From assembly GCA_964433345.1 (NCBI GenBank), contig CAYSQJ010000003.1, forward strand, positions 160,365-224,364: DNA of 64,000 nt. The letters run 5' to 3'. The notes beneath the pieces are model-generated. The model did no database searches, had not been told where the DNA came from, and saw nothing but the letters and a program-made list of their open reading frames with translations. Shown in pieces: positions 5,082-47,408 of the stretch. Position 1 is the stretch's first letter. The number at the start of each line of letters is the position of its first letter. The position numbers and the translations under genes are program-made. This DNA comes from an uncultured Bordetella sp. GTDB taxonomy: Bacteria; Pseudomonadota; Gammaproteobacteria; Burkholderiales; SG8-41.

Positions 5082-6920
5082 ATGACCCCCATCACCGCCA
5101 CCAACGATTTCGTCGTCAAGTTCGCCAACGTCAACGGCTCCGGCTCGGCCTCGGCCAATGAACTGTTCGCGCGCTCTATCCTGCGCATGGGCGTGCCGGT
5201 CAGCCCGCGCAACATCTTCCCCTCCAACATTCAGGGCCTGCCGACCTGGTACGAGGTGAGGGTCACCGAGAAGGGTTACCTCGGCCGCCGTGGCGGCGTC
5301 GACCTGATGGTGGCGATGAACCCGCAGACCTGGGACAACGACCTCAGGGAAATCGAGGCCGGCGGCTACCTGTTCTACGACAACTCCAAGCCGCTGCCCG
5401 AGAGCAAGTTCCGCGGCGACATCACGCGCATCGGCATGCCGCTGACGGAGATCTGCAACGCCACCTACAGCGATCCGCGCCAGCGCCAGCTGTTCAAGAA
5501 CATCATTTACGTCGGCGCGCTGTCGGCGATGCTCGAGATCGACCCCAAGGTGATCGAGCAGCTGTTCTCCGAGCAGTACAAAGGCAAGGAGGCGCTGCTG
5601 CAGTCAAACGTGAAGGCGCTGCATCTCGGCCGCGACTACGCGCTGAAAAACCTGCCCTGCCCGCTGGGCATCCGCATCAAGGCCGCGGACAACGTCGGCA
5701 ATCGCATCTTCGCCGACGGCAACAGCGCAGTGGCGCTGGGCGCGGTCTACGGCGGTGCCTCGGTCTGCGCCTGGTACCCGATCACGCCCTCGTCCTCGGT
5801 GGCGGAGGCCTTCATGGCCTACTGCAAGAAAATGCGCACCGATGCCGAAACCGGCAAGAACAAGTACGCAATCATCCAGGGCGAGGACGAACTCGCCTCG
5901 ATCGGCATAGCCATCGGCGCCGGCTGGAACGGCGCGCGCTCCTTCACCGCGACCTCGGGTCCCGGAATCTCGCTGATGACCGAGTTCATCGGGCTGGCCT
6001 ATTTCGCCGAGATCCCGGTGGTGCTGGTCGACGTGCAGCGCGGCGGCCCCTCGACCGGCATGCCCACTCGTACCCAGCAGTCGGACATTCTCGCCTGCGC
6101 CTATGCCTCCCACGGCGATACCAAGCATCCGCTGCTGTTCCCGGAGGACCCGACCGAGTGCTTCGAGTTCACCGCGCTGTCCTTCGACATCGCCGAACGC
6201 CTGCAGACGCCGGTGTTCGTGATGACCGATCTCGACATCGGGATGAACACCCGGCTGTCCCGGCCCTTCGCCTGGGACGACGGCAGGGAGTACGACCGCG
6301 GCAAGATCATGACCTACGAGAAGTTCGAGGCAGGCGCCGATTTCGGGCGCTACCTCGACGTCGACGGCGACGGCATCCCCTTCCGCACCTATCCCGGCAC
6401 CCATCCGACCAAGGGCGGCTATTTCACCCGCGGCACCACCAAGAACCGCTACGCCCAGTATTCGGAGGCAGGTCCCGACTACGTAGACAACATGCAGCGG
6501 CTGATGCGCAAGTTCGACACCGCGAAATCGCTGATGCCGAAACCCGTGCTGCACCAGGCCGCCAAGCCGGCCAGCTTCGGCGCGATCTATTACGGTTCGA
6601 CCAGCCCGGCGATGCTGGAAGCGCTGGACGTTCTTGCCGAGCGAGGCGTCCACATCAATGCGCTGCGCGTCCGCGGATTTCCGTTTGCCGACGAGGTCAA
6701 GGATTTCGTCGCCGCGCATTCCGGCGTGTTCGTCATCGAACAGAACCGCGATGCCCAGCTGAGAACCCTGCTGGTCAACGATGCGAAAATCAACCCCGCG
6801 CAGCTGATTGCGCTGCTGCACTACGACGGCACGCCGATCACCGCCCGCTTCATCGTTGACCAGATCGTACGCCACGTCGACTCGCACAGCGTCGTGCCGC
6901 TGAAAAAAGCCATGGCCTGA
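5082..6920 (+). CDS. korA: 2-oxoacid:acceptor oxidoreductase subunit alpha (fused alpha/gamma)
   Basis: 612 aa; N-terminal gamma-like domain followed by pyrimidine-binding alpha domain (ITPSSS, GPGISLM, QRGGPSTGMPT). Confidence 0.8.
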   Translation: MTPITATNDFVVKFANVNGSGSASANELFARSILRMGVPVSPRNIFPSNIQGLPTWYEVRVTEKGYLGRRGGVDLMVAMNPQTWDNDLREIEAGGYLFYDNSKPLPESKFRGDITRIGMPLTEICNATYSDPRQRQLFKNIIYVGALSAMLEIDPKVIEQLFSEQYKGKEALLQSNVKALHLGRDYALKNLPCPLGIRIKAADNVGNRIFADGNSAVALGAVYGGASVCAWYPITPSSSVAEAFMAYCKKMRTDAETGKNKYAIIQGEDELASIGIAIGAGWNGARSFTATSGPGISLMTEFIGLAYFAEIPVVLVDVQRGGPSTGMPTRTQQSDILACAYASHGDTKHPLLFPEDPTECFEFTALSFDIAERLQTPVFVMTDLDIGMNTRLSRPFAWDDGREYDRGKIMTYEKFEAGADFGRYLDVDGDGIPFRTYPGTHPTKGGYFTRGTTKNRYAQYSEAGPDYVDNMQRLMRKFDTAKSLMPKPVLHQAAKPASFGAIYYGSTSPAMLEALDVLAERGVHINALRVRGFPFADEVKDFVAAHSGVFVIEQNRDAQLRTLLVNDAKINPAQLIALLHYDGTPITARFIVDQIVRHVDSHSVVPLKKAMA

Positions 6921-8299: not shown

Positions 8300-10186
8300 A
8301 TGGATACCGACCCGCGTTTCAAGGAATCCCGCGCCGCACTGACCCTCGCCGCCCTCGGCATCGTCTACGGCGACATCGGCACCAGCCCGCTCTACGCGGT
8401 GAAGGAAACCTTCGCCCCCGGTCACGCCATCCCCCTGCAGACCGGCACCATCCTCGGCGGCATCTCGGCCATCCTGTGGGCGCTGATGCTGGTGGTCTCC
8501 CTCAAGTACGTCGTCCTCATCATGCGCGCCCACAACAAGGGCGAGGGCGGCATCATGGCGCTGCTGGCGCTGGCCTCCTCGGCCTGCAAAAACCATCCCC
8601 GGCAGTACGCGGCGATCCTCTTCGCCGGACTCGCCGGCGCGGCGCTGTTCTACGGCGACGCGGTGCTGACCCCCGCGATCTCGGTGCTGTCCGCGGTCGA
8701 AGGCCTGGAAATAGGCACCTCCGCCTTCAAACCGTATGTGCTGCCGATTGCCTGCGGCGTGCTGATCGGACTGTTTTCCTTCCAGCGTTTCGGCACCGCG
8801 CGCGTCGGCGCGCTGTTCGGCCCGATCGTGATCCTCTGGTTCCTCGCGCTGAGCGCGGCGGGCCTGCAGGGCATCTCGCGCGCGCCGGAAATCCTGCGAG
8901 CGCTCGACCCGACCCACGCCTTCCATTTCGTCACCGGCCACGGCTTCGCGTCCTTCGTCGTGCTGGGCGCGGTGCTGCTGGCCTTCACCGGCGCCGAGGC
9001 GCTGTACGCGGACATGGGCCATTTCGGCAAGCAGGCGATCCGCAGCGCCTGGTTCGGCCTGGTGTTCCCCGCGCTGGCACTGAACTACCTCGGCCAGGGC
9101 GCACTGCTGCTGACCGAACCCTCGGCGGTGAACAATCCCTTCTATCTGCTCTACCCGGACTGGGCGCTGTACCCGATGGTGGTGCTCGCCACTGCGGCCA
9201 CCGTGATTGCTTCACAGGCGACGATCTCCGGCGCCTATTCGCTGACACGGCAGGCAATCCAGCTCGGCTACCTGCCGCGGATGAGCGTGCTGCAGACCTC
9301 GGCGAAGGAAGCCGGCCAGATCTACATGCCAGCGGTCAATTGGATCCTGCTTGCGGTGGTGATCGCCGCGGTGCTCGGCTTCGGCTCGTCATCCAGCCTC
9401 GCCTCGGCCTACGGCGTCGCCGTCACCGGCACCATGCTGGCGACGACCTTTCTCACCTTTTTCGTGATCCGTTACCACTGGGGCTACAACCTCGCGCTGT
9501 GCATCGCCGCCACCGGCTTTTTCATCGTCGTCGACCTCGCCTTCTTTTCCTCCAGCCTGCTCAAGGTCGCCGGCGGCGGCTGGTTCCCGCTGGCGCTGGG
9601 CTTGATGATGCTGGCGCTGATGCTGACCTGGCGCCGCGGCCGCCGCATCCTCGCCGACCGCCTGCGCGCCTCGGCGATTCCGGTCGAGGGTTTCTTCAAA
9701 TCGCTGCTGCGCTTCCCGCTGCACCGCGTGCCCGGCACCGCGGTGTTCATGGTCGCCGACGGCAACGCGGTGCCGCATGCGCTGCTGCACAACCTGTCAC
9801 ACAACAAGGTGCTGCATGAACGCGTGGTGCTGCTGACGGTGAGCGTCGCTGACGTGCCCTGGATTCCCTTCGGCGAACGGGTCACGGTGGAATCGCTGGG
9901 CAACGGCTGCTGGCGGGTGCGTCTGCATTTCGGCTTCAAGAACCGCACCGACGTGCCGCAGGCGCTGGAGCTGTGCCGTCAACACGGGCTCGAGTTCGAG
10001 ATGATGGAGACCTCGTTTTTCCTCAGCCGCGAAACGCTGGTGCCGGTGGCCGGCGGGGAGGACGGCATGGCGCTGTGGCGCGAGCGGCTGTTCGCGGCGA
10101 TGGCACGCAACGCCAGCAGCGTGGTCGAGTATTTCCACCTGCCGGCGAACCGCGTGATCGAACTGGGCACGCGCATCGAACTCTGA
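8300..10186 (+). CDS. kup: KUP/HAK/KT potassium uptake transporter
   Basis: GIVYGDIGTSPLY signature, multi-TM body, cytoplasmic C-domain; ATG at 8300 preceded by AGGAGG; track ORF start 8243 is an upstream extension. Confidence 0.9.
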   Translation: MDTDPRFKESRAALTLAALGIVYGDIGTSPLYAVKETFAPGHAIPLQTGTILGGISAILWALMLVVSLKYVVLIMRAHNKGEGGIMALLALASSACKNHPRQYAAILFAGLAGAALFYGDAVLTPAISVLSAVEGLEIGTSAFKPYVLPIACGVLIGLFSFQRFGTARVGALFGPIVILWFLALSAAGLQGISRAPEILRALDPTHAFHFVTGHGFASFVVLGAVLLAFTGAEALYADMGHFGKQAIRSAWFGLVFPALALNYLGQGALLLTEPSAVNNPFYLLYPDWALYPMVVLATAATVIASQATISGAYSLTRQAIQLGYLPRMSVLQTSAKEAGQIYMPAVNWILLAVVIAAVLGFGSSSSLASAYGVAVTGTMLATTFLTFFVIRYHWGYNLALCIAATGFFIVVDLAFFSSSLLKVAGGGWFPLALGLMMLALMLTWRRGRRILADRLRASAIPVEGFFKSLLRFPLHRVPGTAVFMVADGNAVPHALLHNLSHNKVLHERVVLLTVSVADVPWIPFGERVTVESLGNGCWRVRLHFGFKNRTDVPQALELCRQHGLEFEMMETSFFLSRETLVPVAGGEDGMALWRERLFAAMARNASSVVEYFHLPANRVIELGTRIEL

Positions 10187-10347
10187 ACGCGGGCCGAAGG
10201 TCTCGCAAGTCTGTTGAAAAAGTGATGCGCGAGCGCGTGGGGAGCGCAGCGACCAAGCGCACACGCGTACAAGCCATTGATTTAACGAGAGTCGAGAAAT
10301 CTTGTGCGCTAGCGAGCAACAACAATTTCGAGAACTTCAACATACTG

Positions 10348-10968
10348 CTAGAGCCGGCGGATCTCCAGGCGGCGCCAGCGGATCGGGCCGCCGGGCCGGC
10401 CGTCAAAACCGTTGCCGAACTGCAGCGCGATCGGGCCCGAGGCAAAGCGGACATCGCGCAATTGCACCGTCTGCACGCCATTGAGCCACACCCTGATCTG
10501 CGGACCCTCGGCGCGGATTTCCAGCAGATTCCAGCGCCCGCCGGCCTTATGCGGACCGGGAACCGGCACGCGCGCAAAACCGACAATCGCCCCCGTGCCG
10601 TACTCCGGGCCGGGGCGTTCATCATATATATTCACTTCATAACCGTGCATGGGTGTAATGTTTGAGGGATCGGACAGGCGCAGGAAAATGCCGCTGTTGG
10701 TCGCGGCCACGGCGAAAAACTCGGCACGCAGTTCGAAATCAGCGTAGGACTCCCGGGTCAGCAGGTAACCGCCCATGCCGCTGCCGCGGTCGGCGACGAT
10801 CGCACCGCCTTCGGCATGCCAGTTGGCATCGCCGCTGCGCGCGAAATTCGCCAGCCCGCGTTCGCCGTCGATCAGCGTGGTCCAGCCGGCCGGCCATTGC
10901 GCGCAGCCGGCAAACAGGACCAGTGCCGCCAGCCACAATCCATGCGGCCAACAGGATCTGCGTTTCAT
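10348..10968 (-). CDS. DUF1080 (3-keto-disaccharide hydrolase-like jelly-roll) lipoprotein
   Basis: Start MKRRSCWPHGLWLAALVLFAGC (lipobox LFAGC) with GGAG SD; DUF1080-like body (WxxxDG...NSGIFLR...YEVNI...WN..EI...G..I..WLNG); starts 26 nt after soxA stop. Confidence 0.7.
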   Translation of the reverse strand: MKRRSCWPHGLWLAALVLFAGCAQWPAGWTTLIDGERGLANFARSGDANWHAEGGAIVADRGSGMGGYLLTRESYADFELRAEFFAVAATNSGIFLRLSDPSNITPMHGYEVNIYDERPGPEYGTGAIVGFARVPVPGPHKAGGRWNLLEIRAEGPQIRVWLNGVQTVQLRDVRFASGPIALQFGNGFDGRPGGPIRWRRLEIRRL

Positions 10969-10994
10969 TTGTTCTCCGATGTTGTCGCGGGTGC

Positions 10995-11870
10995 TCAGCG
11001 CCGCACTCCCGGCGTTTCCACTTTCAGCCCTGAGCCGCGGCGCGCCAGATACAGCTCGAGGTCGAGCAGCTCCTCCGAACCAAAGGCCGGCTGTTCGGCG
11101 CGCACGCCGAAATAACAGGCGCGCAGCCGCCGCTGCAGGGAGCCGACTGCCTGCCATTCCAGGCGATACACCGGGTAGGCGTTGCCATGGCCTTCGCTGA
11201 TGGTGTCGGCCAGCAGCTTGCGCCCGGCGTTCTGAACATGGCAGTGGATGCAGGCAAGGTTCATCTGGCCCTGGCGCCGGTGGAAAATCTCGCGGCCACG
11301 TTGCAGCGCGGCCTGCTCTTCCTTCGCCGCCGGCTGCAAGGGCTGGCCGCGCGACTGGTGCGCGACGTAGGCAGTCAATGCCAGCAGTTCCTCCGATTCG
11401 TACCGCAGCGGAGCGGCCTGTTGCCGCTCAGTACGACAGCCGTTGATGCGTCCCTCGACATTGACCACTTTCGAGGTCGCCGCATCGACGCGGGGATAAC
11501 GCGGTGCGACATCCTTCATGCTCGCTGCCGCATCACCATGACAACTCGCGCAGGATTGCGCGCTGCGTCCCACAGGCGTACTCCAGAGTTTTTCACCGCG
11601 CACCACCCACAGCATGCCGGGATTGGCGAAATCGTCGGCCTGCATGGCGCGGATGTCCGGACTGGCAAATTCAATGCCGGATCTGGGTTTTGTTGTTGTG
11701 ATTGCCTGCTGTGCGAGCGCCGGTGGAATCAACACGACGCAACAAACCGCACAGACGTTGGGTAGCAGAGACAGTAAAAAACGTATGCGTTTCAGCAGCT
11801 TGGCGCATCGCTGCTGGATGCCTGTTGCCTCTGCCCAACAGCAGGGCCCCCGATGAAATGCATTAAGCAT
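10995..11870 (-). CDS. soxA: sulfur-oxidation c-type cytochrome SoxA (diheme type)
   Basis: Two CxxCH (CASCH, CIHCH), conserved C-terminal region LQRRLRACYFGVRAEQ...ELYL...VETPGVRR; start codon uncertain (only in-frame ATG, no SD, long N-region). Confidence 0.85.
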   Translation of the reverse strand: MLNAFHRGPCCWAEATGIQQRCAKLLKRIRFLLSLLPNVCAVCCVVLIPPALAQQAITTTKPRSGIEFASPDIRAMQADDFANPGMLWVVRGEKLWSTPVGRSAQSCASCHGDAAASMKDVAPRYPRVDAATSKVVNVEGRINGCRTERQQAAPLRYESEELLALTAYVAHQSRGQPLQPAAKEEQAALQRGREIFHRRQGQMNLACIHCHVQNAGRKLLADTISEGHGNAYPVYRLEWQAVGSLQRRLRACYFGVRAEQPAFGSEELLDLELYLARRGSGLKVETPGVRR

Positions 11871-11876
11871 TTGATT
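11864..11876 (-). promoter_or_regulatory. IHF-consensus site
   Basis: AATCAAATGCTTA (minus strand) exact match to WATCAANNNNTTR; overlaps soxA start codon. Confidence 0.4.
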
Positions 11877-11894
11877 TTAAACAACTATTTTTCC

Positions 11895-11910
11895 TGGCAC
11901 GGAATACGCT
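11895..11910 (+). promoter_or_regulatory. sigma54-type (-24/-12) promoter for the small secreted peptide gene
   Basis: TGGCACGGAATACGCT: GG-N10-GC spacing exact; 58 nt upstream of ATG 11968; flanking 45 bp resemble the glnK promoter region. Confidence 0.5.
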
Positions 11911-11967
11911 CATATCCAGTGGCAGGCAAGCATGTCTGTATTTTTGCAAATCAACAGGAGCATCTCC

Positions 11968-12144
11968 ATGAGCACGAAACATCTCCGCAAATTCACCCTT
12001 CCCCTTGCCGCAGCTGCCGTACTCGCCGTGAGCAGCGCGGCGTTTGCCGGCACTACCGCCAGCACGACGCCGCAGCAGTCCGCGGAAAAACCCGTCGACT
12101 GCAAGAAAACGCCGGATCACGATCGCTGCAAAGGCAAGAAGTAA
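11968..12144 (+). CDS. small secreted Cys-pair, Lys-rich peptide (58 aa precursor)
   Basis: AGGAG SD 7 nt upstream; signal peptide ...AVSSAAFA/GT; mature about 31 aa with C-X8-C and KGKK tail; GC3-rich codons; sigma54-type promoter upstream and hairpin downstream. Confidence 0.45.
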   Translation: MSTKHLRKFTLPLAAAAVLAVSSAAFAGTTASTTPQQSAEKPVDCKKTPDHDRCKGKK

Positions 12145-12181
12145 TCGTAGCGCGCCGGGGCACAATGATTCCCGGCAACTT

Positions 12182-12212
12182 CATACCGGCCGCGTAAATC
12201 GCGGCCGGTATG
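12182..12212. terminator. hairpin between convergent small-peptide gene and soxZ
   Basis: CATACCGGCCGCG-TAAAT-CGCGGCCGGTATG perfect 13-bp stem; followed by ATTT on + strand only. Confidence 0.5.
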
Positions 12213-12215
12213 ATT

Positions 12216-12539
12216 TCAGGCCGCGCTCACGGTGATGGCCGCTCGCGACTCGCCGCGCTCGCCCGAATCGTCACGCCACTCGAACACGAATTCTCCGCTC
12301 TCCTGCACCCGCACCGGAAACTGCAGCAGCGGGTTCGCGGCAATGCCCGAGCCCATCTCGGCCCTGAACACCTCGACCCCGTTGTAGCGACAGACCAGGG
12401 TGTTGATCACGTTTTTCGGAATGCGCCGGCCGAAATGATCCGGCCGGTAACCGGTCTCCATCGGATGCTGGATGGCGATGCGCAGTTGCACGATCTCGCC
12501 GCGTCGCGCGTTTGCAGGTACCTGTACGCGGGACAGCAT
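12216..12539 (-). CDS. soxZ: sulfur carrier complex protein SoxZ
   Basis: 107 aa from MLSRVQVPANARRGE; HPMETG motif and SoxZ-like C-terminus; start 1 nt after soxY stop. Confidence 0.85.
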   Translation of the reverse strand: MLSRVQVPANARRGEIVQLRIAIQHPMETGYRPDHFGRRIPKNVINTLVCRYNGVEVFRAEMGSGIAANPLLQFPVRVQESGEFVFEWRDDSGERGESRAAITVSAA

Positions 12540-12540
12540 C

Positions 12541-12990
12541 TCAGCCCTCGAGGCAAGCGAGTTCGGTGACAACCACGTGTGCCCCGCCCATCCACCAGCT
12601 GCCGTCGGACAGTTGCGCCAGTGCCAGCACATCCTGGATGTCGGCGAGCCGGATGCGTGTGGCAATTTCCGCCTTCCCGGAATGCGGTCCCAGCGAGAAA
12701 CTCGCGACCACCGGACGCGGATTGCGCTCGGCGAGCAGCGTGATGCGGCGCACGTGGTCCTGCGCCGTCATCGGGCTGTCGACCAGCACCCGCACCGCGA
12801 CCGAATGACCGTTGTCAGCCAGCGGCGGCGTGTCGACAGTGACCCTGCCGGCATTGACCGGAGCACCGCCGGTCACTTCACGCAGCAGCGCGGCACGCTG
12901 CGGATTCTGCTGGGCTGCAGCCAGGCGCGTGCACAGCAGTCCCCCGGCAAGCGCGGTGCTGGTCAGCAGGAAACGGCGGCGGTCAGGCAT
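12541..12990 (-). CDS. soxY: SoxY-family sulfur carrier protein with non-canonical C-terminal arm (…VVVTELACLEG)
   Basis: Tat signal MPDRRRFLL; SoxY fold-like body; single C-terminal Cys in ACLEG context instead of GGCGG. Confidence 0.8.
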   Translation of the reverse strand: MPDRRRFLLTSTALAGGLLCTRLAAAQQNPQRAALLREVTGGAPVNAGRVTVDTPPLADNGHSVAVRVLVDSPMTAQDHVRRITLLAERNPRPVVASFSLGPHSGKAEIATRIRLADIQDVLALAQLSDGSWWMGGAHVVVTELACLEG

Positions 12991-12997
12991 CAGCGGA

Positions 12998-13438
12998 TTA
13001 TTTCAGGGTTTGCAGGTAAGCGACCACGTCTTCGATCTGTGCGGCACTGAGCACCGGTTTGCCGCGGTAAGCCGCGGCCACCCGGTTCAGGCCGTCGATC
13101 CTGTAGTAAGACGGCATCACAGTCTCCGGGTTCAAACGCGACTGGTCAACGATACGCAACCGCAGCTGGGCCGCCGACAGCCGCGCACCTATGCCGGACA
13201 GCGGCGGCGCAATGTTGCCCATGAAGCGCTGTCCGGTTTCGGGCACCGCGTGGCAAAGCAGGCAATTGGCCTCGCGTCCCGCAATGATGTCGCGGCCGCG
13301 CAGCGGATCGCCCGGCTGCGCGGACAGCGGCGCGAGGATCGCATCGCCGTCGACCCGGTAGGGAACAAGAGCCTGCGGCGCCGCCACGGCACAGGCAGCC
13401 GTCGCGGCACACAGCAGGCTCCAGGCCGGAACGCGCAT
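12998..13438 (-). CDS. soxX: monoheme c-type cytochrome SoxX
   Basis: 146 aa from MRVPAWSLL (signal peptide); CLLCH heme site; GNIAPPLSGIG...LNPETVMPSYY...IEDVVAYLQTLK typical of SoxX; longer track ORF (to 14074) overlaps iorB out of frame. Confidence 0.8.
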   Translation of the reverse strand: MRVPAWSLLCAATAACAVAAPQALVPYRVDGDAILAPLSAQPGDPLRGRDIIAGREANCLLCHAVPETGQRFMGNIAPPLSGIGARLSAAQLRLRIVDQSRLNPETVMPSYYRIDGLNRVAAAYRGKPVLSAAQIEDVVAYLQTLK

Positions 13439-13449
13439 TGCGCCCCGGC

Positions 13450-15660
13450 TCAGACCAGCGTCAGCCCCTGCTTCGACAACGGCAGGCTGCGCACCGGCTT
13501 GCCGGTCGCGGCATGGATGGCATTGAGGATCGCCGGCACCACGACGCAGATCGTCGGTTCGCCGACACCGCCCCAGAAGTCGCCGGTCACCGGCAGAATC
13601 ACTTCGACCTTGGGCATTTCGGCGATTTTCATGACGCGGAAATTGTGGAAGTTGGTTTCCACGATGCGTCCGTTGGCCACCGAGATCTCGCTCTGCAGCG
13701 TGGTCATGCCGTAGGCCACCGAGCCCTCGATCTGCGCCGCCGTCTGGTCCGGATTGACCACGTTGCCGCAATCGAGCGCGAACACGCAGCGATGCACCTT
13801 CACTTCGCCCTTGGCGCTGACCGAAACCTCGGCCACCGCGGCGGAATAGCTGCCGTAACCCATGAACTGGGCAATGCCGCGGAATACGCCTTTCGGCAGC
13901 GGCTTGCCCCAGCCGGCCTTCTCGGCGGCGGCATTGAGCACACCCAGATGCTTCGGGCGTTCGCTCATCAGCGCGCGGCGGAACTCCAGCGGATCCCTGC
14001 CGGCCAGCCGCGCCACCTCGTCCATGAAACACTCGAGGAAGATGCCGTTCTGGTTGGTATTGACGCCACGCCACGGACCCACCGGCAGGTGAGTGTTGCG
14101 CATGGCGTATTCAGTGCGCAGGTTGGCGTGGGTGTAGCCGATCTGGGCATCGCCCTGCAGCGTCGGCCACAGGCCCTGCAGCTGGCGCCGGTCCTTGCCG
14201 TCCTTGATCGCCGCCGGATTGGCAAAGGCGTTGATCGACTGGCCGGACACGCGGATGTGCAGGCCGGTCAGGTTACCCTTGGCGTCGACACCCGCGGTCA
14301 TTCGCGCCTGGGCAATGGGCCGGTAGAAATCATGAGCCTGGTCTTCCTCGCGGCTCCACACCATTTTCACCGGCTGGCCGGGGAAAGCCTTGGCAATCGC
14401 GACACCCTGGCGCACCACGTCCTGGTTGCCGATGCGGCGGCCGAAGCCGCCACCCAGATCCATGACATAGACCTCGCACTTGTCGAGCGGCAGCCCTGAC
14501 GAGGAGGACAGCGCGGCGAGCGAAGCCTCGGCATTCTGGGTCGGAATCCAGATTTCGGCCCTGTCCGGCGACAGTTTCACCGTGCAGTTCATCGGCTCCA
14601 TCGTGGTGTGCGAGGTGAAGGGCACGCTGTAGACGGCCTCGATCTTCTTCGCCGAGGCGGCAATCGCCTTCGGCGCGTCGCCGGTGTCGATGTCGGCAAA
14701 GGCGTCGCTCGAGGTCAACCCCGATTCCAGGTGTTTCGCGATCGAGGCACTGTTGACCTTGGCATGAGGACCTTCATCCCAGACGATGGGCAGCGCGTCG
14801 AGCGCCTTCTTCGCCCGCCACCAGGTATCGGCCACCACCGCGACGGTGCTGTCGTTGATTTTCAGCACCCGCTTTACGCCAGGCATGCCCATGATCTTCG
14901 ATTCGTCAAAACTCAGCAGCTTGCCACCATAGACCGGACAGGCCTTGACGGTCGCGTGCAGCATGCCGGGCATTTTCAGATCAATGGCGTAGACCTTGGC
15001 ACCGTTGAGCTTGTCGGCGGTATCCAGGCGGCGCAGACCCTTGCCGGCGATTTTCCAGTCCTTGACCGGTTTGAGCTGGATGCTTTTCGGATCGGGCGGC
15101 GCAAGTTTCGCTGCCGCGGTCGCAACCTTGCCGTAGCTGGTACTGCGGCCGGAGCCGGCGTGGGTAATCACGCCGCTGGCAACGCGGAGCTCGCCGACCG
15201 GCACGCCCCATTCATTGGCTGCCGCCTGCAGCAGCAGCATGCGCGCCGCCGCACCGCCGCGCCGCACGTAGTCCTGCGATTCGCGGATACCGCGGCTGCC
15301 TGCAGTCGACATCACGCCCCAGGCACGCTTGCGTGCAAGGTTCTGGCCGGCGGTTATTTTCTCAGTCGTGACTTTTTTCCAGTCGCATTCCAGTTCCTCT
15401 GCCACCAGCTGGGCAAGACCGGTCAGCGTGCCCTGGCCCATTTCGGCCCGGGCAATGCGGATCACGCAGGTATCGTCGGGCTTCACCACCACCCAGATGT
15501 TGACCTCGGCATCCGCCGCAGCACCCTGTGCAGCGGCGCTGCCGATTCCGAAAGGCAGGTGGAATCCCAGCACGAGGCCGGTGCCGGCTGCCGCGCTGCC
15601 AACGAGAAACTTGCGACGGGAAACTTTCGGAGCTTGTCCGGGATTCATAAGGTCATTCAT
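13450..15660 (-). CDS. xanthine dehydrogenase-family molybdopterin-binding subunit (IorB-like), Tat-exported
   Basis: 736 aa; Tat motif SRRKFLVGSAAAGTGLVLG; aldehyde oxidase/XDH-type large subunit architecture; GGAGAG SD; starts 16 nt after iorA-like stop. Confidence 0.85.
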   Translation of the reverse strand: MNDLMNPGQAPKVSRRKFLVGSAAAGTGLVLGFHLPFGIGSAAAQGAAADAEVNIWVVVKPDDTCVIRIARAEMGQGTLTGLAQLVAEELECDWKKVTTEKITAGQNLARKRAWGVMSTAGSRGIRESQDYVRRGGAAARMLLLQAAANEWGVPVGELRVASGVITHAGSGRSTSYGKVATAAAKLAPPDPKSIQLKPVKDWKIAGKGLRRLDTADKLNGAKVYAIDLKMPGMLHATVKACPVYGGKLLSFDESKIMGMPGVKRVLKINDSTVAVVADTWWRAKKALDALPIVWDEGPHAKVNSASIAKHLESGLTSSDAFADIDTGDAPKAIAASAKKIEAVYSVPFTSHTTMEPMNCTVKLSPDRAEIWIPTQNAEASLAALSSSSGLPLDKCEVYVMDLGGGFGRRIGNQDVVRQGVAIAKAFPGQPVKMVWSREEDQAHDFYRPIAQARMTAGVDAKGNLTGLHIRVSGQSINAFANPAAIKDGKDRRQLQGLWPTLQGDAQIGYTHANLRTEYAMRNTHLPVGPWRGVNTNQNGIFLECFMDEVARLAGRDPLEFRRALMSERPKHLGVLNAAAEKAGWGKPLPKGVFRGIAQFMGYGSYSAAVAEVSVSAKGEVKVHRCVFALDCGNVVNPDQTAAQIEGSVAYGMTTLQSEISVANGRIVETNFHNFRVMKIAEMPKVEVILPVTGDFWGGVGEPTICVVVPAILNAIHAATGKPVRSLPLSKQGLTLV

Positions 15661-15676
15661 GTCGTCTCTCCCCGGC

Positions 15677-16171
15677 TCAGGCGTTCTGTTGATCGGCAAC
15701 CGGCATATCGACGGCAGCAACTTTGCCGCCGGCAGCCATGTGAACCGCAGCGCGAATGCGGTGGTAAGTGCCGCAGCGGCAGATATTGGTCATTGCTTCG
15801 TCGATGTCCTTGTCCGTGGGCTTCGGCTTTTTCGCCAGCAACGCCGCGGCCGCCATGATCTGGCCCGACTGGCAATAGCCGCACTGCGGCACGTCGATCG
15901 CCGCCCAGGCCTTCTGTACCGGATGCGAGCCGTCCTTCGACAGGCCCTCGATGGTGGTGATGCGGTCGCCCGGCTTGAGTGCCGAGACCGGCAACGCGCA
16001 GGAGCGCACGACTTCACCGTTAAGATGAATCGAGCAGGCACCGCACTGCGCCACGCCGCATCCGTACTTGGTACCGGTCAGTCCGACCTGTTCGCGGATT
16101 GCCCATAACAGCGGGGTATCGGCCTCGACGTTGACCTCGTAATTGCGGCCATTGATGTTCAGTTGCGCCAT
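15677..16171 (-). CDS. (2Fe-2S)-binding small subunit of molybdenum hydroxylase (IorA-like)
   Basis: 164 aa; CGVAQCGAC and CGYCQSGQ cluster motifs; GAGGAG SD. Confidence 0.85.
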
Positions 16172-16312
16172 GACTGCTCCTCAGCGGGTTGTTGAATAAC
16201 GGCATTGCAGGCCGTGCCGGACTGCGCGCGGCGGCTGGCTGAATTCCCCGGATGAGTCTTGTGGCCTGCGGTCGATCGCCGCATGGGCGCGCAAAGGAAT
16301 GCGCGAACGGCA

Positions 16313-16340
16313 GATTATGCCGCCCCATGGCCACGGTCAA
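16313..16340 (-). promoter_or_regulatory. candidate sigma70 promoter for the iorAB-soxXYZ transcription unit
   Basis: minus strand TTGACC-N16-ATAATC, about 135 nt upstream of the iorA-like ATG. Confidence 0.3.
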
Positions 16341-16431
16341 CAGGAACCGTGTTTACGGCGGCACCGTCCACAACAAACGCAGCAGGAATGTGCCGCGGCG
16401 CACCAGGAAGGCGGGCTGTCCGGGCGCTGTC

Positions 16432-17127
16432 TCAGGGCAGCTGCGCGCCGTTCATCCGGGCGAGAATGGTCTGGGTGCGGCGTTGCAGGTAGCCGGTGTT
16501 GCTGCCGGGACCGTAGCGGCGCGGACTCGGCACCACCGCGGCAAGACGTGCCGCCTGCTCCGGGGACAACGCGGCCGCGGTTGTCCCGTAGTGGTAACGC
16601 GCCGCAGCCTCGGCACCGAACACACCATCGCCCCATTCGATGACATTGAGATAGATCTCGAGTATCCGCCGCTTGCTCATCACGGTTTCGAGCATCACCG
16701 CGACCACCGCCTCCTGCGCCTTGCGCCACCAGGCCCGCTCCCCGGAGAAGAACAGGTTTTTTGCCAGCTGCTGGGTAATCGTCGAACCGCCGGCGACGAT
16801 TTCGCCCTCGCGCAGGTTCTTTTCGTAGGCTTTCTGGATGCCGTCCCAGTCGAAACCGTTGTGAGTCGCGAATTTCGCGTCCTCGGCGGCCACCACTGCC
16901 CGCTTCAGGTGCACCGAAATCCGCTGGTAGGGCACCCACTGGTGGCGCAGCCGCGCCCGCGGATCATCCTCCCGCAGGATTTCGAGGCGCGCACGCATGA
17001 AAGCCGTGGACTCCGGGTTATTGCCGCTCCAATACCAGACATGCACCAGGAACCAGAACTGCAGTGCGGTCAACACGATCAGCGCCAGCAGGATGATGCG
17101 CCAGGTCCAGCGCAGCAGGAATCTCAT
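16432..17127 (-). CDS. mtgA: monofunctional biosynthetic peptidoglycan transglycosylase
   Basis: N-terminal TM, GT51 motifs EDAKFATHNGFD and GGSTITQQLAKN. Confidence 0.9.
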   Translation of the reverse strand: MRFLLRWTWRIILLALIVLTALQFWFLVHVWYWSGNNPESTAFMRARLEILREDDPRARLRHQWVPYQRISVHLKRAVVAAEDAKFATHNGFDWDGIQKAYEKNLREGEIVAGGSTITQQLAKNLFFSGERAWWRKAQEAVVAVMLETVMSKRRILEIYLNVIEWGDGVFGAEAAARYHYGTTAAALSPEQAARLAAVVPSPRRYGPGSNTGYLQRRTQTILARMNGAQLP

Positions 17128-45539: not shown

Positions 45540-45619
45540 TCACCGCACAGTTTTCGCGCCGATTTGAAATCAGCTTGCGGGCGCGTAATAAATCCGGCTA
45601 AAGAGATCAGCAATTCTCG

Positions 45620-45651
45620 GAACCCCGGCGCGCAGGCTTCGGGGTTTTTTT
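45620..45651 (+). terminator. intrinsic terminator ending 1 nt before the metX ATG (attenuator/riboswitch expression platform)
   Basis: GAACCCCG-12 nt loop-CGGGGTTT then T-run (7 T) running into ATG 45652. Confidence 0.65.
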
Positions 45652-46815
45652 ATGACCAGCAACGACACCAGCAACGACGCCAATACCGCCTCGGTCGGGA
45701 TCGTCCGGCCGCAGACCGCGCGCTTCACCGAACCGCTGACTTTGCGCGGCGGCTCGGTGCTGCGCGGGTACGAACTGGTCTACGAGACCTATGGCCGGCT
45801 GAACGCGGACTGCTCCAATGCCGTGCTGGTCTGCCACGCCCTCAACGCCTCCCACCATGTCGCCGGCCATTACGAGGATGACCCCGAAAATGCCGGCTGG
45901 TGGGACAACATGATCGGCCCCGGCAAACCGCTGGACACCGACCGTTTCTTCGTCATCGGCGTCAACAACCTCGGCGGCTGCCACGGCTCCACCGGACCGT
46001 CGAGCATAAACCCCGACACCGGCAAACCCTGGGGCGGCGATTTCCCCGTGGTCACCGTCGAAGACTGGGTCGATGCCCAGGCGCGGCTCGCCGACCACCT
46101 CGGCATCACCCGCTTCGCAGCGGTGATGGGCGGCAGCCTCGGCGCGATGCAGGCGCTGGCCTGGGCGACCCGCTATCCGGACCGGCTGCGCCACAGCATC
46201 GTGATTGCCTGCGCACCCAATCTCTCGGCACAGAACATCGCCTTCAACGAGGTCGCGCGGCAGGCGATCATCACCGACCCGGATTTTCACGGCGGCGCCT
46301 ACCAGTTGCAGGGCACCGCACCCAAGCGCGGGCTGCGCGTCGCGCGCATGGTCGGGCACATTACCTATCTGTCCGACGACGAAATGGCCAGCAAATTCGG
46401 CCGCCAGCTGAAACACGGCAAGCTGGGCTACGGCTTCGACACCGAGTTCCAGATCGAGTCCTACCTGCGCCACCAGGGCAACAAGTTCGCCGATTATTTC
46501 GATGCCAACACCTACCTGCGCATCACCAAGGCGCTCGACTACTTCGACCCTGCCTTCGCCTGCGGCGGCGACCTGTCGGCGGCACTGAAGGACGTGTCCG
46601 CGGGGATGCTGGTGGTGTCCTTCACCACCGACTGGCGGTTCTCGCCGGAACGCTCGCGCGAGATCGTCCGCGCGCTGCTCGACAACCGCGCCCGGGTGAC
46701 TTACGCGGAAATCGACGCGCCGCACGGCCATGATGCCTTCCTGCTCGAGGATCCTCGCTATCACCGGCTGGTGGCCGCCTATTTCAGGCGCATCGCCGCG
46801 GAGACCGGAACATGA
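45652..46815 (+). CDS. metX: homoserine O-acyltransferase (MetX family)
   Basis: 387 aa; [20 protein letters not shown] nucleophile, HGHDAFL. Confidence 0.9.
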
Positions 46816-47408
46816 CCGGCGCCAACGGCAGCCAGCGCCCGGATTTCGCGGCCATCGCGCAGTGCATACCACGCGCCGCGCATGTGCTCGACCTCGGCTG
46901 CGGCGACGGCACGCTGCTGAAATATCTGCAGCAATCGCGCGGCGTCACCGGCTACGGGGTGGAGATCGACGACGGCAACGTGCTCGCCTGCGTCAACAAC
47001 GGCGTCAATGTCATCCAGGGTGATCTCGAGCACGGCCTCGCCGAGTTCGCCGACGGGTCCTTTGATTTTGTCGTGCTGTCACAGACCCTGCAGGCGATGC
47101 GCAACACCGAGCGCATCGTGCGCGAGATGCTGCGCGTCGGACGCGCCGGCATCGTCACCTTCCCCAATTTCGGCCACTGGAAAAACCGCCTGCAGATCCT
47201 GCGCGGACGCATGCCGGTGTCGGACAAGCTGCCCTTTGAGTGGTTCGACACGCCGAACATCCACCTCTGCACGATCGCCGATTTCGAGCGTTTCTGCGAG
47301 GAACGCGGCATCCGCATCGTCAGCCGCGCGGTGCTGAGCGGCGGCAGGCCGGTGCAGAGACTGCCCAACCTGTTCGGCGAGCTCGCCGTCTATCACTTCT
47401 CCGGCTGA
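46812..47408 (+). CDS. metW: methionine biosynthesis protein MetW
   Basis: 198 aa; [12 protein letters not shown]; ATGA overlap with metX. Confidence 0.9.

Follow-up and report, generated by a model that had tools for sequence, protein, structure and literature searches.

A SoxY-type carrier with an altered, acidic C-terminal arm encoded beside a xanthine-oxidase-family molybdenum enzyme, and a candidate periplasmic Sox-like pathway

The window analysed here is a 64-kb stretch of DNA (64,000 nucleotides) from an uncultured Bordetella sp., and its subject is the minus-strand gene at 12541..12990. The gene encodes a 149-residue carrier of the SoxY type, here termed SoxY', with a twin-arginine translocation (Tat) signal, a SoxY-type beta-sandwich and the arm T-E-L-A-C-L-E-G in place of the canonical T-I-G-G-C-G-G. 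In the canonical Sox system the arm cysteine carries the pathway intermediates (PMC5336275). The altered arm is confirmed as a real, conserved feature, and across Beta-, Alpha- and Gammaproteobacteria and Binatia such a carrier is encoded right behind a two-subunit molybdenum (Mo) enzyme belonging to the xanthine oxidase family. Judged from these sequences, we put at about 50% the probability that SoxY' and its partner SoxZ' (together SoxY'Z') serve as carrier in a Sox-like pathway of the periplasm, where the Mo enzyme stands in for SoxB and SoxCD and processes the carried adduct. Such a pathway would be distinct from the oxidation of thiosulfate to sulfate, and its substrate is probably not thiosulfate.

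Matches to SoxY, SoxZ, SoxX and SoxA are routinely taken to indicate thiosulfate oxidation in genomes and metagenomes, and the present clade is annotated simply as 'SoxY'. If the carrier works with the Mo enzyme, such annotations make thiosulfate oxidation look more frequent than it is and hide a common periplasmic pathway, with current sox-gene surveys miscounting a sulfide, thiol or organosulfur route as thiosulfate oxidation. The Mo enzyme would also be the first member of the xanthine oxidase family shown to act on a substrate tethered to a carrier protein, possibly a sulfur-centred or organosulfur one, and carrier chemistry would be extended to that family. Hosts of the module include Limnohabitans and other Comamonadaceae, uncultured Burkholderiales, Methylobacterium, Microvirga, Bosea, Starkeya and Telmatospirillum; cultured, genetically tractable organisms carry it, so the question is directly testable.

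A conserved change in the carrier arm

SoxY' begins with MPDRRRFLLTS (MPDRRRFLLTSTALAGG), which contains the twin-arginine motif RRRFLL, and ends with GGAHVVVTELACLEG (...VVVTELACLEG), where the sole C-terminal cysteine is residue 146 (codon 12553..12555). The arm, taken directly from the sequence, comprises residues 143-149, E-L-A-C-L-E-G (12544..12564, minus strand). A sequence-only reading of this DNA had described a Tat signal on a SoxY-like body, and both parts of that description are borne out, the latter by a Pfam SoxY match of 104.8 bits (cutoff 28.4) and by a PDB search in which SoxY' aligned with Paracoccus SoxY (2ox5_Y, E 1.6e-16). An AlphaFold (AF2) model made from an alignment of 38 homologues has a body with predicted local distance difference test (pLDDT) values of 88-96 and, in the nine C-terminal residues that make up the arm, values of about 63. 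Paracoccus SoxY chains are also the best fold matches of the model in the PDB (2oxg_Y, target-normalised template modelling (TM) score 0.83, 41% identity). Canonical SoxYZ, as solved from Paracoccus pantotrophus (2ox5/2oxg) and as the Thermus SoxYZ-SoxB complex (4uwq), shares with the window the fold, the Tat signal, the SoxZ partner, the arm cysteine and SoxXA.

The same reading had noted that the GGCGG arm is missing and that the cysteine lies in E-L-A-C-L-E-G, and the terminus and a six-frame reading agree with it: neither GGCGG nor GGCG followed by a stop is encoded in any frame of the window. Its proposal that C-termini be compared across homologues gave the ending TELAC[LV][ED] in all 120 of the 120 closest database homologues (68-93% identity). 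The 38-homologue alignment shows no variation at E143, L144, A145 and C146 and conservation of at least 90% at L147 and E148, and independent metagenome contigs carry an identical SoxY' with the same neighbours. Because the terminus is kept in all 120 homologues, the altered arm is not a frameshift or an assembly artefact; an artefactual origin of any kind (frameshift, mis-assembly or decaying pseudogene), in favour of which nothing was found, is ruled out by these observations together with the confident fold model.

Among NCBIfam models, SoxY' scores best with TIGR04487 (160.6 bits), ahead of the true-GGCGG SoxY model TIGR04488 (88.5 bits) and TIGR04557 (69.9 bits). The curated cutoffs of the three are 172, 125 (equivalog) and 140 bits, so that SoxY' lies under the cutoff for both TIGR04487 and TIGR04488; for comparison, a genuine GGCGG SoxY at locus L062 scores 142 bits with TIGR04488. 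The AACIE-arm family named in the sequence-only reading does exist and is the best model, although the score of SoxY' stays short of its cutoff, and canonical SoxY is not the best match. Of the relatives scored, only the alphaproteobacterial Microvirga protein passes the TIGR04487 cutoff (221.5 bits), while the betaproteobacterial ones reach 104-161 bits. By these scores the SoxY' clade, betaproteobacterial and made up of Burkholderiales metagenome-assembled genomes (MAGs), is a divergent relative within TIGR04487, the 'SoxY-related AACIE arm protein' (SoxY_para_1). A named member, WP_273564934.1 of Methylobacterium sp. NMS14P, has the SoxY body, the Tat signal, an Ala-Cys-hydrophobic-acidic arm and the same neighbourhood as the window, with the difference that the window arm reads L-A-C-L-E-G and not A-A-C-I-E. 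Since their scores fall below the TIGR04487 cutoff, this clade and some alphaproteobacterial members are named 'thiosulfate oxidation carrier protein SoxY' in public records (P0002, P0007 and P0107, and the gene at 8599..9039 of locus L071).

To survey arm variation, representatives at 50% identity were searched exhaustively and the best 150 taken. A Cys-aliphatic-Asp/Glu arm is present in 98 of these 150 and Gly-Gly-Cys in 21. The arm profile (n=154) is V-T-[L/E/I]-[A/S]-A-C-[L/V/I]-[D/E]-x, with Ala at -1 in 94%, Cys in 100%, Leu, Val or Ile at +1 in 87% and Asp or Glu at +2 in 93%, and the window arm L-A-C-L-E fits the TIGR04487 motif of a small residue, Ala, Cys, an aliphatic and an acidic residue. 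Usually three to five residues follow the arm cysteine in the altered-arm family, against one or two in the Gly-Gly-Cys group. A neighbour-joining tree built on about 140 non-arm columns does not split acidic and Gly-Gly-Cys arms cleanly, and the body of SoxY' is about 42-43% identical to both groups alike. Individual arms vary further. At locus L036 (a Burkholderiales MAG) the carrier at 5803..6579 is linked to a Mo enzyme and scores 160 bits with TIGR04487 against 115 with true SoxY, yet its arm reads ...VTVGGCAP. The arm of L027 (a Halioglobus MAG) is ...TLAACVV, with no acidic residue. On pSymA of Sinorhizobium meliloti (L075, 6893..9334) the SoxY with the arm variant ...VAVATNGCL is encoded together with SoxZ, a c-type cytochrome and a flavoprotein resembling flavocytochrome c sulfide dehydrogenase (FCSD), in a cluster of four genes.

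The family already has a name, has been noticed twice in genome papers and is systematically mis-annotated. The sequence-only reading knew of no experimentally defined substrate, and likewise the literature search gave no paper that defines one. The term 'AACIE' did not occur in the literature searched, nor did any functional study of an acidic-arm carrier or of a pairing between SoxYZ and a xanthine-oxidase-family enzyme. A large 2024 survey of SoxY diversity dropped all sequences without 'GGC' (PMC11237559).

The molybdenum enzyme and the conserved module

The most informative feature of the neighbourhood is the xanthine-oxidase-family Mo enzyme encoded just upstream of the carrier, which the sequence-only reading did not notice. 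On the minus strand the gene order is 2Fe-2S subunit, Mo subunit, SoxX, SoxY', SoxZ', SoxA and a DUF1080 lipoprotein. Gaps of 16, 11, 7 and 1 nt separate the first five genes, SoxX thus starting 11 nt past the stop of the Mo subunit, and 345 nt then precede SoxA. The module opens with the [2Fe-2S] small subunit (FeS; 15677..16171, minus strand), which has no signal peptide. It matches Pfam Fer2 (36.4 bits) and Fer2_2 (101.8 bits), its NCBIfam matches are iron-sulfur subunits of aldehyde/xanthine dehydrogenases, and homologues lie at the same position in most related loci. The molybdopterin-binding large subunit (MoL; 13450..15660, minus strand) has 736 residues from the ATG at 15660 and a Tat signal, SRRKFLVGSAAAG; its open reading frame (ORF) reaches upstream to a TTG at 15720. 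MoL matches Pfam MoCoBD_1 and MoCoBD_2, and its nearest solved relative is the large subunit of the Gluconobacter membrane-bound aldehyde dehydrogenase (8gy3_C, E 9e-75). Alignment with PaoC shows that it keeps the GGGFGRR molybdenum cofactor (Moco) motif and, within GVGEP, the catalytic Glu. As in Mo hydroxylases of the IorAB/AldFGH type (isoquinoline 1-oxidoreductase; 8gy3), the window enzyme combines a two-cluster 2Fe-2S subunit with a Tat-signal Moco subunit and a conserved Glu, and has no flavin (FAD) subunit. It differs from the classical enzymes in its identity to them of about 40% or less and in the replacement, within the operon, of a cytochrome c of about 430 residues by SoxX, SoxY'Z' and SoxA.

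The Sox components that follow are of recognisable type. SoxX (12998..13438, minus strand) is a monohaem c-type cytochrome with the motif CLLCH (TIGR04485, 79 bits against a cutoff of 61). The normal soxZ noted in the sequence-only reading is present at 12216..12539 (minus strand) and encodes SoxZ', a partner of 107 residues without a signal peptide (TIGR04490, 84.2 bits against 76; Pfam SoxZ, 90.1 bits). At the junction of the two carrier genes (GGC TGA G ATG, or TGAGATG) the soxZ' start lies 1 nt after the soxY' stop and is translationally coupled to it. SoxA (10995..11870, minus strand) is a dihaem c-type cytochrome with the motifs CASCH and CIHCH (TIGR04484, 231.7 bits against 110); its true start probably lies downstream of 11870, a signal-peptide-like stretch, KRIRFLLSLLPNVCAVCCVVLIPPALA, standing ahead of the mature part. 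It aligns over its full length with Rhodovulum SoxA (1h31, E 3e-47), with both CxxCH motifs kept and with the cysteine ligand of the active-site haem also kept (RLRAC aligned to RFRGC). Each of SoxX, SoxZ' and SoxA scores above its equivalog cutoff. All six products either carry an export signal or are encoded beside a Tat-signal partner, and every component of the module is predicted to be periplasmic and catalytically intact.

SoxB, SoxC and SoxD were searched for by tblastn with queries from the one canonical locus of the set, of which SoxB was validated at 818 bits (TIGR04486) and SoxC at 632 bits (TIGR04555). The 64-kb window gave no match, in keeping with the absence of soxB stated in the sequence-only reading, and neither did the 10-kb flanks of the acidic-arm loci, so that hidden copies nearby are ruled out for the window and for all these loci. 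The other large ORFs of the window were scanned and are housekeeping genes only. The module shares with a complete Sox system SoxXA with its Cys-ligated haem, and differs from it in having a Mo enzyme in the operon and no SoxB or SoxCD.

A scan of one genome per species gave 64 related loci, selected by similarity to the query. The closest, a Burkholderiales MAG, is 98% identical and has the same flanking genes. Wherever at least 2.5 kb of upstream sequence is available, the acidic-arm carrier lies directly downstream of a Mo subunit (46 of 46 loci), as compared with one of four loci with a Gly-Gly-Cys arm (Fisher p = 2e-4, the loci being phylogenetically non-independent). Hosts in the Betaproteobacteria are uncultured Burkholderiales, Comamonadaceae and Limnohabitans, and in the Alphaproteobacteria Microvirga, Bosea, Rhodomicrobium, Telmatospirillum and Azospirillum-like organisms; a Halioglobus MAG (Gammaproteobacteria) and a Binatia MAG are further hosts. 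The sequence-only reading had suggested that a changed arm alters which enzymes can dock on the carrier, an idea to which the conserved linkage to a Mo enzyme lends concrete support.

SoxXA, separate or fused, is encoded in 46 of 58 acidic-arm loci. A divergent SoxX-SoxA fusion of about 390 residues lies just downstream of SoxZ' in L024 (10744..11931, minus strand), L025, L026 and L030, its N-terminal domain (CVSCH...MPPYG) leading into a SoxA domain that bears the haem-ligand motif RRIRAC; a further fusion was seen at L018 (12978..14075). Eleven loci, mostly alphaproteobacterial, have in addition a small cytochrome c and a flavoprotein with both FCSD-specific Pfam domains (FCSD_central, 156 bits), which by these domains is FCSD. 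This pair is not found in the betaproteobacterial module to which the window belongs. The order FeS-MoL-(cytochrome c-FCSD)-SoxX-Y'-Z'-SoxA is seen in Microvirga (L020, L022), Methylobacterium (L065) and Neorhizobium (L066), and that of the window is the same minus the bracketed pair. RefSeq lists for a Methylobacterium plasmid a (2Fe-2S)-binding protein, a Moco-binding protein, a cytochrome c, an FAD oxidoreductase, SoxX, a 'SoxY-related AACIE arm protein', SoxZ and SoxA; plasmids of Neorhizobium and Roseomonas have a similar order. A Telmatospirillum MAG (L014) has MoL-cytochrome c-FccB-SoxX-Y' and the arm AACVED. At locus L016 (245..8089, an uncultured proteobacterium) three tandem Mo-subunit paralogues, two with an FeS gene of their own, lie directly upstream of FCSD-SoxX-Y'-Z'-SoxA. 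Moco-maturation genes of the XdhC/MocA type were found in no carrier-linked locus and are rejected as members of the module.

The Mo enzymes of these loci also form a group of their own. Plasmid-borne MoL homologues fall into two sets with a sharp break between them, about 36 records being 51-59% identical and the others 41% or less. The latter are the classical three-gene FeS-MoL-cytochrome c enzyme, with a cytochrome c of about 430 residues (as at a Caballeronia locus), and tblastn found this cytochrome subunit in none of the SoxY'-linked loci and not in the window. By neighbour joining, the carrier-linked Mo subunits are one clade apart from the classical type.

Clusters of similar content have been published. 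In Starkeya novella a second cluster, soxX2Y2Z2A2F2 (Snov_1982-1977), shares an operon with a xanthine-oxidase-family Mo enzyme (Snov_1975/1976) and lacks SoxB and SoxCD; its SoxAX and SoxYZ were undetected by proteomics, it was expressed at very low levels on thiosulfate, methanol or glucose, and a complete sox cluster lies elsewhere in the genome (PMC3797975, Kappler and colleagues). Telmatospirillum siberiense has soxEFXYZA, with no other sox genes reported (PMC5786683), and at least one published genome has the module without any SoxB or SoxCD. Both clusters share with the window SoxXA, SoxYZ, the Mo enzyme and the lack of SoxB/SoxCD, and differ from it in gene order and in carrying a flavocytochrome c (SoxEF-like). 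Neither PMC3797975 nor PMC5786683 gives a function or mentions an altered arm.

A parallel case of recruitment is the quinoprotein-associated SoxYZ-like family TIGR04557 (PP_2677 of the Pseudomonas putida ped cluster), which is likewise derived from SoxY and SoxZ and lies beside a non-Sox periplasmic dehydrogenase. TIGR04557 is a fused SoxY-SoxZ found with pyrroloquinoline quinone (PQQ) dehydrogenases and a SoxH-like hydrolase, whereas the window genes are separate and have a Mo partner. SoxY' (69.9 bits) and SoxZ' (48.5 bits) both score below its cutoff of 140, and no PQQ dehydrogenase is encoded in the window neighbourhood of SoxY'.

A Sox-like pathway and competing explanations

In the pathway proposed here, SoxXA, with its intact active site, would charge Cys146 with a sulfur-linked group by forming an S-S bond oxidatively, as the canonical system does. 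Borne on the SoxY' arm, the adduct would then reach the substrate funnel of the Mo enzyme, which may oxidise either the carbon attached to the sulfur or the sulfur itself, and electrons would pass via the 2Fe-2S clusters to c-type cytochromes. Remodelling of the arm, with its glycines lost and a hydrophobic and an acidic residue gained beside the cysteine, could be an adaptation to the new docking partner. Where the module includes FCSD, sulfide or a thiol is a more likely substrate than thiosulfate. The linked sulfide dehydrogenase and the lack of induction by thiosulfate both point away from thiosulfate and towards sulfide, a thiol or an organosulfur compound. A broader and more speculative proposal is that FeS-MoL-(SoxX)-Y'Z'-(SoxA) is a widespread, distinct periplasmic pathway in which Sox-type oxidative S-S coupling yields a sulfur adduct bound to the carrier protein and the Mo enzyme processes it, possibly giving heterotrophic freshwater and soil Proteobacteria an oxidation route for sulfide, thiols or organosulfur compounds.

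Several points weigh against a carrier pathway of this kind. The known reaction of xanthine-oxidase-family enzymes is the hydroxylation of free aldehydes and heterocycles at C-H carbons, and action on a protein-bound or a sulfur substrate is not known for any of them. Nested within the linked Mo clade are enzymes of Sinorhizobium meliloti (L069, plasmid pB, in a strain other than that of L075) and Methylosinus trichosporium OB3b that have no adjacent SoxY'Z', only c-type cytochromes being encoded beside them. These carrier-less members indicate that the Mo enzyme can probably function without the carrier; they weigh most heavily against a strict carrier-substrate model, and an exclusive dependence of the clade on SoxY'Z' is rejected on their account. 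In the DNA examined, SoxXA is missing from twelve of the acidic-arm loci, every one of them from a Comamonadaceae or Limnohabitans-like genome, so that loading by SoxXA is either not universal or acts in trans. A Gly-Gly-Cys arm occurs at one linked locus (L036) and the acidic residue is missing from a few arms, the loci are related by descent and were picked by similarity to the query, and Starkeya SoxY2 is a putative counterpart of SoxY' by the gene content of its cluster. No experiment on any member of the family was found in the literature.

The strongest of the alternatives, though itself improbable, is that SoxY'Z' is a sulfur donor, its persulfide installing or repairing the labile terminal Mo=S ligand of the enzyme in the periplasm. 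SoxXA and, where present, FCSD would load the carrier from sulfide or thiosulfate, and the substrate of the Mo enzyme would be a small molecule in free form. For cytoplasmic selenium-dependent enzymes, a dedicated delivery of chalcogen to Mo hydroxylases has been proposed. Sulfur donation would account for the carrier-less members of the Mo clade better than a carrier pathway does, and also for the dispensability of SoxB and SoxCD and for the FCSD flavoproteins that join the module in Alphaproteobacteria. XdhC/MocA genes, in no linked locus, are present at the unlinked Methylosinus locus, which speaks for this explanation, although XdhC-type factors are cytoplasmic and may be encoded elsewhere. 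A periplasmic resulfuration system is not known, repair would come at the large cost of four to six genes, two cytochromes among their products, and the far commoner classical FeS-MoL-cytochrome c enzymes do without a helper of this kind.

Capture of aldehydes by the arm thiol, as thiohemiacetals presented to an aldehyde-dehydrogenase-like Mo enzyme, appears more doubtful still. Parallels would be the thiol-dependent oxidation of formaldehyde and, possibly, the quinoprotein-associated SoxYZ-like carriers. The nearest solved relative of MoL is indeed an aldehyde dehydrogenase, the related TIGR04557 family is tied to periplasmic PQQ alcohol dehydrogenases, and several hosts, such as Methylobacterium and Starkeya, are methylotrophs. 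Aldehyde capture nevertheless leaves a bona fide SoxXA and a sulfide dehydrogenase flavoprotein unexplained, and Mo aldehyde oxidoreductases oxidise free aldehydes with no need of a thiol. Moreover, the Starkeya cluster was not induced on methanol (PMC3797975).

A slightly smaller probability still falls to SoxY'Z' being a second SoxYZ for thiosulfate that uses SoxB and SoxCD in trans, the change of arm being minor and the Mo enzyme an unrelated neighbour. This would suit the passing of thiosulfate-pathway equivalog models by SoxX, SoxZ and SoxA, as well as the wording of the public records ('thiosulfate oxidation carrier protein SoxY'); the window covers 64 kb of its genome, and Starkeya has a full sox cluster elsewhere. 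The altered arm is, however, strongly conserved across a large family, SoxY' fails the true-SoxY cutoff, and linkage to a Mo enzyme in 46 of 46 loci across phyla would be unexpected of a chance neighbour. Telmatospirillum siberiense is reported to be without other sox genes (PMC5786683), the Starkeya cluster is unexpressed on thiosulfate (PMC3797975), and soxY2 of B. diazoefficiens, a possible counterpart of soxY', is dispensable for thiosulfate oxidation (PMC5748708). The probability left over belongs to something not yet conceived.

Neighbouring genes and minor observations

The next gene, 26 nt after soxA, encodes a lipoprotein of the DUF1080 / 3-keto-disaccharide-hydrolase family (10348..10968, minus strand; Pfam PF06439, 112.8 bits). 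Only L001-L004, the nearest relatives, have it at this position, so it may be a clade-specific addition, its membership of the module being uncertain. A small secreted ORF with a signal peptide lies on the opposite strand within the 345-nt gap between soxZ' and soxA (11932..12144, plus strand). Its mature part ends in ...VDCKKTPDHDRCKGKK and has two cysteines and no Pfam match; it is conserved in L001, L003 and L004 (51-88% identity) and is called as a 58-residue gene on metagenome contigs.

On plasmid pOB3b1 of Methylosinus trichosporium OB3b (L070, 1257..9769) an arylsulfatase gene and a gene for a multihaem cytochrome c of 650 residues precede the Mo enzyme, and opposite-strand genes of the XdhC/CoxI and nucleotidyltransferase families, resembling Moco-maturation genes, follow it. 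About 95 kb away on the same plasmid (L073), the only SoxY match is a canonical soxY next to soxZ-soxB, apparently disrupted by an IS6 element.

A promoter and terminator scan of 10000..16700 gave matches at chance level, and an Rfam scan of the window found no RNA element on the operon. The sole Rfam match is a SAM-II riboswitch (SAM_alpha) at 45546..45622 on the plus strand (41.6 bits against a gathering threshold of 36), just upstream of ORFs at 45652..47408 that resemble metX and metW.

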